Shown here: piece after piece, positions 51,498 to 61,971 of the stretch | Layout: every line of letters starts with the position of its first letter | Numbering within the stretch: position 1 is the stretch's first letter | DNA from: a virus | Length of the DNA: 64,000 nt | Reading direction: 5' to 3' (one strand) | IMG/VR virus record: IMGVR_UViG_3300027644_000003 | Coordinates: 35,470-99,469 of that record | Made by a program: the position numbers and the translations under genes | The notes under the pieces: model-generated | Told to the model about the DNA's origin: nothing | Seen by the model: the letters and a program-made list of their open reading frames with translations, nothing else | Database searches by the model: none

Positions 51498-52064
51498 TTA
51501 TGCCTCTTGTATGTATGTATGAATCTCGCCACCCGAATAGATGTCATGCTTGCAGGCGATTTCAATTGCCCGTCTCACAGCCTTTTCGGCGGCCGCGGGT
51601 GTACTGATTTTTGAGTAGTTCAAAGCTTCAAGTGCGCCTAGTGCAACATCCCCACCACTACCAGCGTAGTAAACATTGCGGGCTTCTCTATCCCAAGAGT
51701 AATCGTTAAAGATCGGGTAGATGACACCTCTAATAGAAACAAGCAAGTTAGAGTCTTGCCACGCTGCATCGCCATCTTCTTTACCTTCAAAGCCAGCATC
51801 CTGGAAAGCTTTACGCATTGAGGGAATAAACTTCTTAGTCATAAAAGAATCTAAATCGATAGTTGCACTTGGCTTTGGTGGCTTCCAACCAAATTGGGTA
51901 ATGTTTCCACCTCTAGAAGCGCCGGAGACAGCTATCAGTACACCGTTATTATTAACAATCTTAGATGTAGCAAGTTCCATATAGCGACCATCTTCATCAG
52001 AGGCGCGGGAATCACAACCTATAACAGACCAGCCATCACCTTGGATTGCAACAAGCGTAGTCAT
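51498..52064 (-). CDS. HslV / proteasome-beta-like threonine peptidase
   Basis: N-terminal MTT, DSR, KI, GSGG..ALGAL and DIYSGG motifs. Confidence 0.9.
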   Translation of the reverse strand: MTTLVAIQGDGWSVIGCDSRASDEDGRYMELATSKIVNNNGVLIAVSGASRGGNITQFGWKPPKPSATIDLDSFMTKKFIPSMRKAFQDAGFEGKEDGDAAWQDSNLLVSIRGVIYPIFNDYSWDREARNVYYAGSGGDVALGALEALNYSKISTPAAAEKAVRRAIEIACKHDIYSGGEIHTYIQEA

Positions 52065-52099
52065 GAGATCCCCTCAGTTGATAGTGCAATCCTACAGTA

Positions 52100-52588
52100 C
52101 TACAGGCCAGATCCAAACTGGAACTCATCAGGCCTTTTGCGGGGGAGATTTGAGTAGTCAGTCTTACTCCAAGGTGCTCCATCTAGGTAAAGTGTAATAA
52201 AATCGTGGGTGGAGTCTGAGTTCTTCAAGATATCCCATAGGACAGCATCTACTCCATCGTACTGGATCATAGATCCGTCTCTCATGCCAATGACTAGTAC
52301 TTCCATCTCTTTATCTAGAGAGTAGCAAGCGTAATATGCTCTAGGTCGCGGACGTCCTAAGACGTCTGTCTTGCCAGATGTAGGAGCTGTTATATGTTCA
52401 TACCCAGGGCCACATGGATTAGAAGAGCTCATAGAAGAGAGCCGAGCTTCCCGTCCCTCTATTGTGGTATTAGAAGCTAGTTTGTCTTTCATCGCCTCTT
52501 GTACGTTTAATGCTACCTCGCCAGCTTGAGACTCTGATGACCGTCTTCTATTGTAATAGTTATCTAGATCTCGACCTCTACCGGCCAT
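52100..52588 (-). CDS. KTSC-like domain protein
   Basis: L.I..RDG....YDGV....W..L..SDS pattern. Confidence 0.6.
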   Translation of the reverse strand: MAGRGRDLDNYYNRRRSSESQAGEVALNVQEAMKDKLASNTTIEGREARLSSMSSSNPCGPGYEHITAPTSGKTDVLGRPRPRAYYACYSLDKEMEVLVIGMRDGSMIQYDGVDAVLWDILKNSDSTHDFITLYLDGAPWSKTDYSNLPRKRPDEFQFGSGL

Positions 52589-52700
52589 TATATTCCTCTT
52601 CCAAATGTTTTTCCTCGCACATGCGAGCTAAATCAGGAACTACATAGACTTTTCTACATAATTGACACGTCCAGCGTTCTAAACGCTCCCGATCATCCAT
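52578..52700 (-). CDS. Small Zn-finger protein (40 aa)
   Basis: Manual ORF containing WTCQLCRKVYVVPDLARMCEEKH. Confidence 0.6.
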   Translation of the reverse strand: MDDRERLERWTCQLCRKVYVVPDLARMCEEKHLEEEYNGR

Positions 52701-52813
52701 ATGTAGGCATCTTACTACTTGGCTACTGCCTTAGAAGCCTGTAGCTCCCCGAAATTTTTAGGCTACTGCCTCCCCGGTATAAGACTCAACAGTTTATTTC
52801 TCCTGGCCGAATA

Positions 52814-52888
52814 CGGACAAAACGGACATTTAAGGGTAGGGGGGGCAAAACGGACAAATCGGACAAATAAGAACAAAACGGACAAATA
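52814..52888. repeat. CGGACA(AAW) direct-repeat array at the strand switch
   Basis: CGGACA at 52814, 52823, 52851, 52860 and 52879, plus a degenerate copy at 52870. Confidence 0.85.
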
Positions 52889-52945
52889 AAATTATGGTGT
52901 AAGGCTTCAGAAGCAAAGGTTAGCAAGTAGGTAATCCTGTGTGCG

Positions 52946-52976
52946 GTGCCTAGTAGGTTCAACTCCTGCTAGGCAC
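52946..52976 (+). ncRNA. tRNA minihelix-like T-loop hairpin
   Basis: GTGCCTAGTAGG-TTCAACT-CCTGCTAGGCAC: 12-bp stem with 7-nt TPsiC-type loop. Confidence 0.7.
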
Positions 52977-53022
52977 ACGCTGTATTCGGTAGCCCTGTCT
53001 ATCAACAGCAGAAGGCATAACA

Positions 53023-53550
53023 ATGTCCGCACGCGAAAATCTGTCTGCGTTGCTCGCAACCCGTGGTAAGGGTGGCTCTCTAGAGTCCATCTCCCAAGCA
53101 GGGGCGCACTTCAACAAAGACAAGACACTCACCCCGTCTGACTTCATCTCGGTAGATAAGTTAGACGCATCTAAGGCAATCACACTACTAGGCGGGTTCG
53201 CCGTATCTACCTATGGGCTAGACCCAAAGGTGGCTTACTCAATGCGTAATGCGTTCGCTAAGAAGTATGCTCAGGTGGTCAATCTCTATGACCTATCACA
53301 AGCAGACTTCATCTCCGCAATTTCAGAGATAGATGCCGAGATTGCGACAGAAGCCTCTAACAAGGCTAACTTCGCTATCTCTATGGGCACAGAGCAAGAG
53401 CGTCTCATCAAGAACGCTCAATCTGCTATCGACAAGTTAGTAGATGCTAATGTGTCCCCAAAGGTCAAGCACGATTTGCTTACTCTTGCTCGCACCATTG
53501 AGCAGAAGTTGGCTTATGCGCCTGTCCAAAAAGTCGCACAAGTAGCCTAA
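53023..53550 (+). CDS. First early protein, hypothetical, helical
   Basis: 175 aa ORF with AGAAGG RBS. Confidence 0.8.
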   Translation: MSARENLSALLATRGKGGSLESISQAGAHFNKDKTLTPSDFISVDKLDASKAITLLGGFAVSTYGLDPKVAYSMRNAFAKKYAQVVNLYDLSQADFISAISEIDAEIATEASNKANFAISMGTEQERLIKNAQSAIDKLVDANVSPKVKHDLLTLARTIEQKLAYAPVQKVAQVA

Positions 53551-53557
53551 TAATAGC

Positions 53558-53980
53558 GAGAGGGGGGACTAGCTCCTCCCTCTCCCTATCTATGTCCACA
53601 GTATCCCTGTGGGCGTAGATGGGGTATGCCGACCAATCGGCTCACTCTGGTATGTAATGTGCCAGCCCCCGCACTAATGGATTACCTACAAGTGTCTTCT
53701 GTCTATCGAGAAGCCCTAGCCGTCCCCTTCACAATGTCGGCTAGGGCTTTCTCATCTCACAATGTGATACAACTCTCATCATAGATAATTGGCTACTGCT
53801 AATTGGCTAACTATGAGCATTGGGAGACACACCAGGTCTACGACTATGGTCTAGGTCTGTTATCAGGTAGGTTGTGGAAGATACATAGGACAACAGACTG
53901 AGACTCGTAAGGTGTTAATTTGTCTGTGTAGTGCGTAGGTCGCCCTTCCCTATGTATCTCTCACTCTCTATCTGGAGAGT
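53558..53980 (+). ncRNA. Multi-hairpin, pseudoknotted non-coding region
   Basis: At least eight stems found by eye; no ORF of 60 aa or more. Confidence 0.6.
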
Positions 53981-54000
53981 ATCTAACTAGGAGTAATAAA

Positions 54001-54415: not shown

Positions 54416-54565
54416 ATGTTCACACTATCTGTAAAGATAGGCATTACCCGCAAGCCCCGCAAGCAGAAAGAGCTGACCAGTGTTGCTTGTTATCACTGTG
54501 GCAAGACCTTCACAATGCACATAAAGAACATCAGAACAAGCAATTACTGCACTAGTTGTAAGTAA
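54416..54565 (+). CDS. Small Zn-ribbon protein (49 aa)
   Basis: Manual ORF with CYHC and CTSC; GAAAGGA RBS. Confidence 0.75.
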   Translation: MFTLSVKIGITRKPRKQKELTSVACYHCGKTFTMHIKNIRTSNYCTSCK

Positions 54566-54589
54566 TACACCAATCCTTCCCCGCGAAGT

Positions 54590-54866
54590 TTGAGATGGAT
54601 AGAGGGCACACTGAATAGGCTGTTGATTGCATCGAGAACGAGGAATCTATGTGAGTGTAACTATTATCATAGAGGGAGCGTGAAGAAGCGAAGCAGTACG
54701 GACTTAGGTGCTTGAGGTGCCCAGAGGGAGATAGTTACCTACCTAAGTAATTACAGGACATGAACAAAAACAATCATGGTAATTGAATCTGTTATGCAAG
54801 AGGGGCTGTGGTTGTGAGTCTCACGCAATTCCTTCAGTAATTCAGTGTGTCCCCTATTTATCTCAA
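54590..54866 (+). ncRNA. 277-nt structured RNA closed by a 27-bp helix
   Basis: Closing helix has 23 Watson-Crick pairs, 3 G-U and 1 mismatch; internal kissing loop. Confidence 0.75.
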
Positions 54867-54894
54867 TCGAGGTAAATAAACAGAAGGGAAGACT

Positions 54895-58609: not shown

Positions 58610-60052
58610 ATGGATATCGCTGTATTCACAGAGTCGTACGAACCAATCATGGGGGCTAAGCGCCGTCAGGTTCTTATCACTCCACATGATGGAAATGTAC
58701 GAATCTACTCACGTGATACTGACGGGACTAAGGGTCCTCACAACAAGTGGGAGGAAACTGACCTCGACACTATCACTGGACAGATAGGTACTGATGAAAA
58801 GCTAACACGTGAACCTGTTGCTGTATATGTTACATCAGCAGACGAACGTGCTATGACGGACAAAGGTTATTCCCCGGTCCTCGGCACCAAGGCGTGTCAA
58901 GCACATACTAAAGCAGGACTCAACACGGATACTACGCCATTTGTAGAACGCTTATGCGAAATCTACGAAGCGGTAAGTAACCATGATGATTCTCTTGAAA
59001 ACCATGTGATTGACAATCGTCGTATGCCAGGCTTACCTGTTCCGCTAGCATCAGCACCAACACAAACAACGCCAGCACCTACCGCAACACCATTTGTAGA
59101 GCCTGTTGTTCAAGCAACAAGTACATCAAACGGCGCAGTAATAACCGCAGCGCTTGCTTCAGTGCCACGCATTGAACTAGCAAAACGTTATGTGCATCGT
59201 GATATCTGGTCCCGCCAGGACTTTGAAATCTTTGATTACTCTCGTGCTAAAAGCATCAACGTTCTTATCTACGGCCCTACCGGCCCAGGTAAAACTACAT
59301 CTGTTGAAGCATGGGCTGCTGAACGCAATTTACCTATGGCAACAGTATCTGGTAACGCTTCAATGGAGCCAAGCCAAATGACTGGTAAATATGTATCTGA
59401 TGGCAATGGTTCATTTGCATGGATCGATGGCCCAGTTACAGATGTTGTTCGTAATGGTGGTGTCTTATTACTCGACGAGGTTAACTTCATCAGTCCTAAG
59501 ATCTACACTGTTCTATATTCATTGCTAGATGGTCGTCGTTCTATCACACTGTTGGATCACCATGGTGAAACTATTGAGGCTCATCCAGACCTCACTATCT
59601 TCGCTACTATGAATCCAGATTACATTGGTACAACGCCGCTCAACTTTGCATTCCGCAATCGTTTTGATATCCAGATTCCATGGGATTACGACGATAAGGT
59701 CGAGTCTAAACTAGTCTCCTCCAAGGCTTTGCTTGTAGTTGCTAAACAACTACGCGTTGAAGCTAACAAAGGTCAATACGAGACACCAATCTCAACCAAC
59801 ATGCTGCAAGAGTTCGTTAACTTTGTTGACCCTCTTGGCTACGAGTTCGCAGTGGAAAACTTCATTGCTCACTTTAGTTCTGACGAAGCAGCAAGCGTTC
59901 GATTGGTATTTCAGACACACGAACACAATATCAAGACAGACTTTGGTATTGAAATCCCAATAACTCTTGAGAAAGAGTCTGAAGGAAAATCTCCTGAAGA
60001 ACTTCTTAAAGAGTGGGCAGGACAATACGGAGCAGTTAACGGATTGGTATAA
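58610..60052 (+). CDS. MoxR/CobS-like AAA+ ATPase
   Basis: GPTGPGKT, LLDEVN, ATMNP and NRF motifs. Confidence 0.93.
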   Translation: MDIAVFTESYEPIMGAKRRQVLITPHDGNVRIYSRDTDGTKGPHNKWEETDLDTITGQIGTDEKLTREPVAVYVTSADERAMTDKGYSPVLGTKACQAHTKAGLNTDTTPFVERLCEIYEAVSNHDDSLENHVIDNRRMPGLPVPLASAPTQTTPAPTATPFVEPVVQATSTSNGAVITAALASVPRIELAKRYVHRDIWSRQDFEIFDYSRAKSINVLIYGPTGPGKTTSVEAWAAERNLPMATVSGNASMEPSQMTGKYVSDGNGSFAWIDGPVTDVVRNGGVLLLDEVNFISPKIYTVLYSLLDGRRSITLLDHHGETIEAHPDLTIFATMNPDYIGTTPLNFAFRNRFDIQIPWDYDDKVESKLVSSKALLVVAKQLRVEANKGQYETPISTNMLQEFVNFVDPLGYEFAVENFIAHFSSDEAASVRLVFQTHEHNIKTDFGIEIPITLEKESEGKSPEELLKEWAGQYGAVNGLV

Positions 60053-60054
60053 CT

Positions 60055-61971
60055 ATGTACATTGAAGAACTAGAACAGCACTGGGGTGATGCCCGGACTG
60101 AAGATACACAGCAACGTTCTGTTCGACTCAATGCACTATGTCGTGTATACGAACAGGCTGACCGTGTACTCACGGGTGACCCAGTCACAGTCAATGTAGT
60201 GCCTAACGGCCCCGCACCAGCGTGGTCTGATGGTGCATCTATTTACATCAACCTTGATCAAATTGAGGAGATGGACTTAGAAACATTAACACAGGTTAAC
60301 GGTCTCAATTACCATGAGCTAGCCCATCACCTGTATACGCCTCGCAAAGGCACAGAACTAATCAAGTGGGTCATTGATAAAAAATACTTCCAAGCCTTTA
60401 ACATCTTGGAAGATCAACGTATCGAGACTCTCTTAGTTGGTAGATATCCATCTATTGCGCCATACCTAACAGCAACAGTTGCTCGTTGGTTAGGTGCATC
60501 AGAAGATGTCAATGGTAACTATGTCTGCATACGTGGCCGTCGTTACTTACCTGTTGAAATTAGACAAGCATTCCGTGACGAGTTTGCCTTCCCTGAACTA
60601 ATACCAACAATAATTAGAATCGTAGATGAGTATCGATTGCTAGCGTTTCCACAAGGATACGCACGAGCACAAGAACTAATCGAAGAGTTCTATGATGAAG
60701 TATGCCTACCAATGGGCTTACTACCTGAGATGGATGGTGGCCCCAACAAGTGTGGTGGTCGTGATCCAGTATCAAAAGGCAGACCTGAACCTGGTAAGGC
60801 TCAGGAGAAAGACGCTCAACGAGCAGCAGGTATGGGTACTAAAGAATCTACTTATGTACCTAAACCTAAAACTAATGAGAGCCCATCTTCAGATAACAAT
60901 GGACTATCTGATATGCCTACCAACACAAACCCAAACGATGACGGCAATGGATCTAATCCATCTACCACATCTGCGCCACGCTCTGTCCAAGAAGCATTGG
61001 ACATACGAGAGCAAAATATAAATACATCCTCAATAACACCCGGAACAGGACATGCTCCTAGTCTTGGTGGTTTACCTGACAAAATCAATGACATGCTAAA
61101 TACAGCAATTGATGAAGTGCTTGAACGTAAAGATGTACAAGCAGACGTCAAAACAAAACAGCGTGTAATTGTAGGTGGAGATGGTAAACACGAGGATATA
61201 ACTAAGAAAGGTAAATTCAATGATACAAGCGTTCCCCAAGACGCAATAATCTCTTATCGCAAGTTTGCTAAAGAGTTACAGCGTTTACGCGATGATTCAG
61301 AACCTACGTGGCAAAGAGAAACCCCTACAGGTCGACTCAATGTACAACGTGTAATCAGAGGTTGCGAAATTGATCAATCCTTTGATAGGTGGGACGAAGG
61401 TGATGATGGCTGTGATATCGAAGCAGTTATCCTTGTCGACCGTTCAGGTTCTATGTCTAGTCAACAGAATGATAAAAAAGCATCTATCGCTTGCTGGACT
61501 ATCAAACGTGCGCTAGAACATATACAAGCCCCAGTCACCGTCTATGCCTTTGATGATAAAGCAGAAGTTGCTTATACTCGTAATGAGCGTGCATCTAAAA
61601 CTCAATACAAGTTCATCTATGGTAATGGTGGTACAGAACCGTACCCAACCTTGCTTGCTGCCGAACAGTTACTTATGGCTTCGCGTAAGAAGAATAAGAT
61701 GCTGTTCATTGTTACCGATGGTGTGTTCAACACAAACAAAAACGACGAACTAATTGAACGCATTACCCGTCGCGGTATCTTGACATCTATGATTCTTATC
61801 ATGGAGGATAAAGAATGGAAATACTATGTAGAAGACCATAACCAACTCACTCAAGAGCAGTTACGGCACAAAGCAGAAGTATTTGCCCGTATCAATACTG
61901 CCAAAGACTTACTCCCATTTGCTAAACAAGTGGTAGTCAGTGCCATCAAAAAACGCTCGAGAATGAGATAG
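60055..61971 (+). CDS. CobT-like VWA protein with N-terminal metallopeptidase motif
   Basis: HELAH, FNILEDQRIE, MIDAS DRSGS, GGT and VTDG motifs. Confidence 0.92.
   Translation: MYIEELEQHWGDARTEDTQQRSVRLNALCRVYEQADRVLTGDPVTVNVVPNGPAPAWSDGASIYINLDQIEEMDLETLTQVNGLNYHELAHHLYTPRKGTELIKWVIDKKYFQAFNILEDQRIETLLVGRYPSIAPYLTATVARWLGASEDVNGNYVCIRGRRYLPVEIRQAFRDEFAFPELIPTIIRIVDEYRLLAFPQGYARAQELIEEFYDEVCLPMGLLPEMDGGPNKCGGRDPVSKGRPEPGKAQEKDAQRAAGMGTKESTYVPKPKTNESPSSDNNGLSDMPTNTNPNDDGNGSNPSTTSAPRSVQEALDIREQNINTSSITPGTGHAPSLGGLPDKINDMLNTAIDEVLERKDVQADVKTKQRVIVGGDGKHEDITKKGKFNDTSVPQDAIISYRKFAKELQRLRDDSEPTWQRETPTGRLNVQRVIRGCEIDQSFDRWDEGDDGCDIEAVILVDRSGSMSSQQNDKKASIACWTIKRALEHIQAPVTVYAFDDKAEVAYTRNERASKTQYKFIYGNGGTEPYPTLLAAEQLLMASRKKNKMLFIVTDGVFNTNKNDELIERITRRGILTSMILIMEDKEWKYYVEDHNQLTQEQLRHKAEVFARINTAKDLLPFAKQVVVSAIKKRSRMR

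Follow-up and report, generated by a model that had tools for sequence, protein, structure and literature searches.

Comparative evidence for an mRNA panhandle enclosing an early gene of uncultured freshwater phages

Comparison of related loci shows that the leader and the 3' untranslated region (UTR) of an early phage gene are under selection to pair with each other in plus-strand RNA, giving a predicted mRNA panhandle whose helix encloses the whole open reading frame (ORF). The sequence in which this helix was noticed, a stretch of 64,000 nucleotides (nt) referred to here as the window, is inconclusive when taken alone, and it was the comparison with its relatives that proved decisive. Intramolecular pairing between 5' and 3' UTRs is textbook knowledge where the messages of eukaryotes and RNA viruses are concerned; for bacteria and DNA phages, to our knowledge, a handful of single-gene studies document it (hok, icaR, and hbs). 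While bacterial-type 5'/3'-UTR pairing is therefore known in principle, what is new here is a panhandle belonging to no described family that is combined with a putative tRNA-like minihelix, ultra-conserved UTRs, and unusually strong natural covariation. A literature search returned nothing specific to such an element. With covariation spanning six clades of uncultured phages, the panhandle offers a clean model for asking what purpose a closed bacterial mRNA serves.

The window makes up the right-hand 64 kb of an uncultured virus record that is 99,469 bp long. Late and structural genes (terminase, portal, major capsid protein, and tail fibers) occupy the minus strand from 1 to 52588, and a rightward gene run begins at 53023; the panhandle locus is the divergent junction between the two, a layout retained in relatives. 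The major capsid protein is 72-73% identical to those of Streptomyces phages of the BRock group, and fresh water is the source of all related contigs and sequencing runs, from which we take the phage to be most likely a freshwater actinophage. A nucleotide search against a phage collection was without match. The elements of the locus, numbered by position in the window, are as follows.

52886-52891, plus strand: candidate -10 element TAAAAT, which has the form TAnnnT in every homolog and precedes the first hairpin by about 10 nt
52903-52914, plus strand: P0, a small hairpin at the 5' end whose loop (U/G)CAGA is conserved, seen in the MFE fold
52927-52937, plus strand: 5' arm of P1, the outer part of the helix
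52941-52945, plus strand: 5' arm of P2, GUGCG, separated from P1 by a 3x4 internal loop
52946-52976, plus strand: T-loop hairpin of 12 bp with T-loop GGTTCAACTCC, abutting P2 without spacer
52979-53009, plus strand: variable hairpin located 3' of the T-loop hairpin and 5' of the ribosome-binding site (RBS), with each homolog having its own
53010-53015, plus strand: Shine-Dalgarno (SD) sequence GAAGG, AGAAAGG in most homologs and conserved in alignment A5
53023-53550, plus strand: ORF of 175 aa, a conserved, predicted all-helical protein with 85 homolog clusters
53553-53589, plus strand: hp1, a G+C-rich hairpin directly 3' of the stop codon, seen by repeat search, fold, and alignment
53589-53619, plus strand: hp2, a 13-bp hairpin rich in U.G pairs, where U.G alternates with U-A or C-G
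53621-53669, plus strand: 3' sub-domain with a GGGG/CCCC closing helix, in MFE and centroid folds, adjoining the P2 3' arm
53670-53674, plus strand: 3' arm of P2, CGCAC, from the letters, the fold, and homolog comparison
53679-53689, plus strand: 3' arm of P1, from the letters, a repeat search, and homolog comparison
53692-53706, plus strand: block GTGTCTTCTGTCTAT, whose first 14 bases are identical in 17 of 17 aligned sequences and in loci L023 and L034
53708-53753, plus strand: probable intrinsic terminator, an almost invariant hairpin of 14 bp whose 15-nt loop is C-rich, with UUUCUCAUCUC after it

The helix in the window and in related loci

An earlier note on this DNA, made from the letters of the window, had described GTAGGTAATCC (52927-52937) as the exact reverse complement of 53679-53689 and the adjacent GTGCGG (52941-46) as complementary to CCGCAC (53669-74). 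Both pairings were confirmed in the window letters, the first also by a repeat search. Nucleotide G52946 more likely belongs to the T-loop hairpin (52946-52976) than to P2, which leaves P2 with 5 bp. The helix spans about 750 nt, and its enclosed contents are likewise as the note had them, namely the 12-bp T-loop hairpin, the 175-aa ORF, and four 3' hairpins. Exact 11-nt inverted repeats no more than 1 kb apart number 33 in the window, against 20.6 +/- 6.8 in Markov-1 random sequences. Among 20,000 random segment pairs, 2 matched the duplex energy of -29.7 kcal/mol, a frequency at which one such duplex is expected by chance somewhere in 64 kb, so that the single sequence is not significant. 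Folding of 52900-53780 places the helix in both the MFE and the centroid structures (z = -7.6).

Twenty related loci with usable flanks were taken from viral, metagenome, and genome collections; they form six clades (A-F) and encode proteins 41-98% identical to that of the window. A two-part duplex of 17-22 bp occupies the same place in all 20 of these loci (freshwater viral and metagenome contigs), its two partners lying immediately 5' of the T-loop hairpin and of the conserved GTGTCTTCTGTCTA, respectively. Duplex energies in the homologs range from -26 to -31 kcal/mol against shuffle means of -10 to -14 kcal/mol, and 0-2 of 1000 shuffles match the observed value. P1 varies from 7 to 14 bp and P2 from 4 to 10 bp, with an internal loop or bulge between them; this interruption is kept in every clade, and the total length is that of about two helical turns.

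The arms have diverged in concert. Clade-specific pairs include GUAGGUAAUCC/GGAUUACCUAC, AGUUAGGUGA/UCACCUAACU, ACAGCAGCAGACU/AGUCUGCUGCUGU, and AUAACAGCAGGC/GCCUGCUGUUAU, the P2 arms of clade E read CUCG/CGAG, and arms combined across clades misfit, reaching only -7 to -18 kcal/mol. An end-anchored alignment shows both-side changes at 9 of the 11 P1 pairs and pairing in 95% of cells, compared with 32-47% in slid registers, and the covariation score was matched by none of 500 shuffles. Independent partition-function folds of 14 full-length homologs gave 15-22 long-range pairs in the ensemble. Covariation of the arms among homologs, which the earlier note had proposed as a check on the helix, is thus clearly present.

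One of these loci, L034, was found later via an unrelated DNA motif and represents a previously unsampled clade. Its arms, AAUAGGC/GCCUAUU in P1 and UGCUAUUGCG/CGCAAUAGCA in P2, are different yet complementary (-25.9 kcal/mol), so that new data bore the prediction out. In the search for more distant clades, viral scans with P0084 and P0079 yielded nothing, and the genome scan yielded this one contig. On the opposite strand, the U.G pairs of the arms and of hp2 would become A.C mismatches, and for this reason the structure is assigned to plus-strand RNA; in hp2, the exchange of U.G with U-A or C-G at several pairs points to plus-strand RNA only.

The earlier note had also suggested that GTGTCTTCTG could pair with the RBS region. 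This is true of the window letters (-15.9 kcal/mol), and it is not a conserved feature: energies in homologs fall to between -7.7 and -12.7 kcal/mol, at background level in clade E, and the pairing is absent from the ensembles. Two further candidates were rejected, namely pairing of the P2 arm with codons 2-4 (CCGCAC), which occurs in clade A only, the codons varying freely elsewhere, and pairing of the RBS sequence AGAAAGCA with UGCUUUCU, which is restricted to locus L007. In full-length folds of 14 homologs, the mean unpaired probability of the SD sequence ranges from 0.05 to 0.61, the lowest value (0.05) being that of L007, and its pairing partners are mostly local, L007 excepted. In Staphylococcus aureus icaR, a 3' motif (UCCCCUG) masks the Shine-Dalgarno sequence by 5'/3'-UTR pairing (Ruiz de los Mozos et al. 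2013, PMC3868564). Unlike the icaR pairing, the phage helix is situated some 70-95 nt upstream of the start codon, and masking of the SD sequence is not a conserved feature.

The enclosed gene, its UTRs, and their transcription

At the 5' end of the locus, the candidate -10 element appears in homologs as TAAACT, TATAAT, TAATCT, or TAAGAT (alignments A1 and A5), and a sigma-70 scan gave no full promoter. The P0 stem varies by clade and is complementary by eye (GCU/AGC, CGG/CCG, GGUG/CACC, and CGGGU/ACCCG); RNAalifold did not call it. Between P0 and the 5' arms of P1 and P2 lies a conserved linker, AAGGUUAG.

The T-loop hairpin carries the loop UUCAACU and shows compensatory changes in 8 of its 12 pairs (RNAalifold). 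The window has a single GGTTCRANTCC motif where 0.11 would be expected, and the T-arm consensus GGTTCRANYCC is present on the 12-bp coaxial stem, except that clade E and L034 carry TGCRAYT instead. We regard the hairpin as a putative mimic of the tRNA acceptor/T-arm minihelix, a type of structure that is a substrate of RNase P and of the CCA-adding enzyme. Like tRNA minihelices, it has a 12-bp stem, a 7-nt loop fitting the T-loop consensus, and G-C closing pairs; unlike them, it has no CCA, D arm, or anticodon arm, and a G stands at the U55 position in clade E and L034. ARAGORN reported no tRNA gene, cloverleaf, or CCA end, and Rfam gave no tRNA or tmRNA match even at E values up to 10.

Diversity at codon positions 1, 2, and 3 of the ORF is 0.33, 0.25, and 0.52, respectively, a pattern which argues that the ORF is truly a protein-coding gene. 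The AlphaFold model of its product is all-helical (pLDDT 83). Searches of Pfam and PHROG assigned the protein to no family, PDB and BFVD gave no fold match, and the phage collection gave no relative. The earlier note had drawn a comparison with type I toxin mRNAs; membership in that class is not supported, as the product is soluble and helical, 175 aa long, and its ORF carries a clear coding signature. The 3' non-coding blocks differ pairwise by 0.11-0.21 on average, versus 0.39 for the ORF body, and the last seven codons have a third-position diversity of 0.12 versus 0.48 overall, the lowest of 169 windows along the ORF.

In the 3' UTR, hp1 shows one both-side change, U-A to A-U, in 7 of 17 sequences. 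Hairpins hp3 (53628-41) and hp4 (53647-65) sit within the GGGG/CCCC sub-domain, whose clade E counterpart is closed by GGGGAG/CUCCCC. The 14-bp hairpin with its U-rich tail is likely to be the transcript terminator; it shows one U-A to C-G double change among homologs, and L034 adds a C-G pair and a UUUUCAUUAU tail. A terminator scan missed this hairpin (53708-53753), whose loop is longer than the scan's 8 nt. A weak Rfam match to sar RNA (27.9 bits versus a gathering score of 43) is attributed to resemblance to a terminator, and the remaining matches in 52600-54000, all sub-threshold, are likewise put down to hairpin or terminator likeness. Across the whole window, Rfam returned nothing at the gathering threshold, including GOLLD, ROOL, group I and II introns, and ribozymes, in a search that would miss a model split by an ORF. 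No hammerhead-type core motifs were seen by eye.

Six public metatranscriptome runs, which look like a single 2017 campaign, contain part of the window, and the contigs of four, which carry no strand-specific information, were compared with it. In three of these runs, contigs extend from 52912/13 to 53547-60, through the 5' arm, the T-loop hairpin, and the ORF, at a depth of 10-51; in the fourth, a contig covers 52995-53547 at a depth of 65. The late-gene side, 52026-52911, is uncovered in all four, which indicates an RNA signal rather than DNA carry-over. The leader, including the 5' arm, and the ORF belong to one RNA, and the contigs of the panhandle gene are 3-10 times deeper than those of its neighbors. 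A transcript start after 52946, which the earlier note had named as grounds for abandoning the helix, is excluded, the RNA contigs beginning upstream of the 5' arm. Circularization, another proposal of that note, found no support: there are no joints in the RNA contigs and no RtcB match in the phage record, both of which are weak negatives.

The lack of contigs over 53560-53977 in the four runs could be taken for an RNA end at hp1, and this candidate was rejected as an assembly artifact. Two contig ends, 53556 and 53560, lie 30 nt, or k-1 of the assembler, beyond the last differences specific to a strain (53526 and 53530 in L024; 53524 in L002), and the break thus falls where a strain-specific ORF meets a 3' UTR common to co-occurring strains. 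With the contig ends explained as de Bruijn breakpoints, the gap is no evidence on the 3' end of the transcript. The same applies to a gap at 54609-54875.

Possible functions of the closed message

Processing, protection, and switching are rival functions of the helix that are separable by experiment. Our tentative preference, by analogy with known stems, is that the helix may serve as a leader-trailer stem for processing by a host RNase III-type enzyme and for stabilization of the message. Bacterial 16S and 23S rRNA precursors have leader-trailer RNase III stems, and T7 early mRNAs have bipartite RNase III sites. The phage helix resembles these sites in that flanking complements pair over hundreds of nt around a functional RNA, and in being an interrupted helix of about two turns, its two ~10-bp stems set around an internal loop, on an early phage transcript. 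It differs from the rRNA stems in that the enclosed RNA is a protein-coding message and cleavage is here only proposed, and from the T7 sites in that these are local intergenic hairpins, not gene-enclosing helices.

Under the processing model, the transcript would run from near 52899 to the invariant terminator hairpin near 53755. The arms would pair, and host RNase III would then cut in or beside the internal loop, severing either both strands or, as it does at T7 R1.1, just the 3' strand. Cleavage would remove flanking RNA to give a monocistronic message, the trimmed ends of which would abut the T-loop hairpin on the 5' side and the GGGG/CCCC hairpin cluster on the 3' side. Such stable ends would block 5'-end-dependent nucleases and 3' exonucleases, resulting in high early expression. 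The phage record gave no match to the RNase III (PF14622), reverse transcriptase, or RtcB families tested, so that the enzyme would be that of the host; Actinobacteria possess RNase III.

The processing model is favored by the conservation in every clade of a two-turn length with an interruption, by the stable covarying hairpins at both inner ends of the helix, and by the greater depth of the RNA contigs relative to those of neighboring genes. Against it, the RNA contigs start upstream of the 5' arm, which means that at least part of the RNA has an uncut leader, and the longest uninterrupted run does not exceed 14 bp, a length that could equally evade RNase III. Processing would also leave unexplained the conservation of the T-loop sequence, the near invariance of 53692-53753, and the synonymous constraint in the last seven codons.

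Almost as likely, if still doubtful, is an uncleaved protective clamp similar to that of hbs, in which the helix, P0, and the terminator would form a compact junction hiding the RNA ends and the leader from nucleases. In an extension of this idea, terminating ribosomes may be held near the start codon, giving a long-lived and highly translated early mRNA. A clamp explains the intact leader of the RNA contigs and the conserved linkers better than processing does, and continuous runs of at most 14 bp would avoid RNase III. The layout is symmetric, with a terminal hairpin, a conserved linker, and an arm at each end; the linkers AAGGUUAG and GUGUCUUCUGUCUAU and the P0 loop CAGA are possible junction contacts, which, however, fall in invariant sequence and hence beyond the reach of covariation. 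Most full-length folds predict an SD sequence that is largely unpaired (mean unpaired probability 0.25-0.61, with L007 at 0.05). A precedent is the Bacillus subtilis hbs mRNA, where a 14-bp pairing of the 5' with the 3' UTR protects from RNase Y (Braun, Durand and Condon 2017, PMC5737220). The phage element shares with hbs an intramolecular leader/3'-UTR pairing of about 14 bp near leader hairpins, hbs being a highly expressed small gene with altered nuclease access. Unlike hbs, it belongs to another organism group and shows no sequence relation, and its helix is longer, bipartite, and placed beside a T-loop hairpin.

A two-state switch comparable to hok fbi/tac or lambda sib appears unlikely. 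Here the 5' arm would alternate between partners and so set translation or decay and the timing of this early gene. Its partner would be the 3'-UTR arm in full-length or read-through RNA and the last ORF codons in a shorter RNA ending at hp1. The hok mRNA fold-back (fbi/tac) belongs to type I toxin-antitoxin systems and lambda sib to retroregulation, and the phage element has in common with them a covariation-supported long-range 5'-3' pairing and a possible alternative partner of the 5' element. In clades B-E the 5' arm is complementary to the last ~20 nt of the ORF (-17 to -25 kcal/mol, matched by 4 to 34 of 500 shuffles), the arms of clade E misfit the ORF ends of clades B-D, the low third-position diversity lies in those last seven codons, and hp1, which has a U-rich tail in clade E, follows immediately after the stop codon. 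In the window itself, on the other hand, the ORF-end pairing is at the shuffle mean (-14.4 kcal/mol), and the pairing register differs among clades, so that no column-wise count of covariation can be made. Nor is the ORF toxin-like: hok encodes a small hydrophobic membrane toxin (under about 60 aa) in place of a 175-aa soluble protein, and the phage arms are not at the extreme RNA ends. We treat the second state as a lead rather than a result.

The better conservation of the UTRs relative to the protein keeps open a further reading raised by the earlier note, that the ORF is embedded in a larger structured RNA. In its specific form, the UTRs would be the halves of one structured noncoding RNA of ~330 nt serving a function of its own, perhaps by mimicking tRNA so as to decoy or recruit host tRNA-processing factors, with the ORF simply lying in a loop. 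The maintained T-loop consensus, the lower divergence of the UTR blocks (0.11-0.21, compared with 0.39 for the protein-coding part), and other conserved structured early elements, such as that at 54560-54890, are in its favor. It is nevertheless improbable: no copy without the ORF was found, the 3' motif occurring once per contig and always beside the panhandle gene, and there is no Rfam family, CCA end, or cloverleaf. In a broader form, the leader and trailer would make up one selected RNA device of ~330 nt among a battery of structured RNAs dominating the early region of widespread freshwater actinophages, a view we consider possible, if on the unlikely side. If it were true, early expression or host takeover would be run largely by RNA structure and not by proteins.

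Finally, a DNA-level feature (recombination, cassette exchange, or single-stranded DNA folding) or a chance 11-mer is very improbable, for even though the ORF varies more than the sequence flanking it, a trait also of exchangeable cassettes, and the repeat is within chance in the window alone, compensatory changes occur in six clades, the G.U pairs would be A.C mismatches on the other strand, the region is transcribed, and neither a reverse transcriptase match in the record nor a recombinase among the nearby proteins scanned was found.

As a separate observation on the early region, the further conserved structured element at 54560-54890 is 71-97% identical among relatives. In the clade E locus L007 it retains 85% identity over 328 nt, although the encoded proteins are 43% identical.

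Conserved non-coding and coding sequence in the early region

The best-conserved parts of the early region seem to be non-coding elements, among which the following lies between genes:

54560-54890: structured intergenic element, with a closing helix of 27 bp (54590-54616/54840-54866)

Across about 20 related loci this element retains a nucleotide identity of 71-97%, and in the clade E locus L007 it is 85% identical, while the proteins of that locus show only about 43% identity. Inside the 175-aa ORF that is enclosed by the long-range helix, the last seven codons (53530-53550) are nearly frozen at synonymous sites, with a diversity of 0.12 versus 0.48. Because in clades B-E these codons are complementary to the 5' arm, the leader side of the helix, which also pairs with the 3' UTR, base complementarity makes them a possible alternative partner of that arm. 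Synonymous diversity is likewise low (about 0.26) in codons 15-28 (53065-53105, AAGGGTGGCTCT and onward), where several wobble positions are invariant between clades, hinting at an additional RNA-level constraint within the ORF.

Repeated motifs flanking the gene

Two repeated motifs accompany the gene. One immediately precedes the candidate -10 element, and copies of the other lie on either side of the coding sequence:

52805-52889: 29-nt repeat family ACGGACAAA, present in four to five copies immediately before the candidate -10 element
52719-52728, + strand: TTGGCTACTG(C) motif, upstream of the gene
52759-52768, + strand: TTGGCTACTG(C) motif, upstream of the gene
53789-53798, + strand: TTGGCTACTG(C) motif, past the terminator

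The ACGGACAAA repeats are kept in all homologs. When up to one mismatch is allowed, ACGGACAAA has 21 matches in the whole window versus 14 expected, and its exact copies are clustered at 52805-52889. The four to five repeats there may serve to bind a regulator, or they may belong to an unusual promoter. The third copy of TTGGCTACTG(C) is invariant among homologs, and the count of this motif across the window shows no excess over chance.

A possible T-loop variant and a short homologous contig

In one RNA contig from the public metatranscriptome run X16 (depth 10.7), T replaces A at position 52962, the counterpart in the leader's T-loop hairpin of tRNA A58; position 52962 is invariant across all homologous loci. 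This substitution may reflect strain variation or a mistake in the assembly.

The sole hit in the genome collection, contig L034 (JBBRXZ010000210.1, 1784 nt), carries a homolog of the 175-aa ORF gene with its leader and trailer, and was binned into a Candidatus Saccharimonadales metagenome-assembled genome. The locus is too short to reveal any host DNA. Since the contig may come from a phage and have been mis-binned, it is uninformative as to the host.

Other genes in the window

Two further features of the window were recorded:

52578-52700, - strand: 40-aa ORF with CxxC...C spacing, flanked on one side by the divergent region and on the other by the 162-aa gene
58610-61971: two paired genes, one for an AAA_5 ATPase, the other for a protein that has a VWA domain at its C-terminus

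The 40-aa ORF may encode a small zinc-ribbon protein. The ATPase/VWA pair resembles CobS/CobT-like pairs, which are common in phages.
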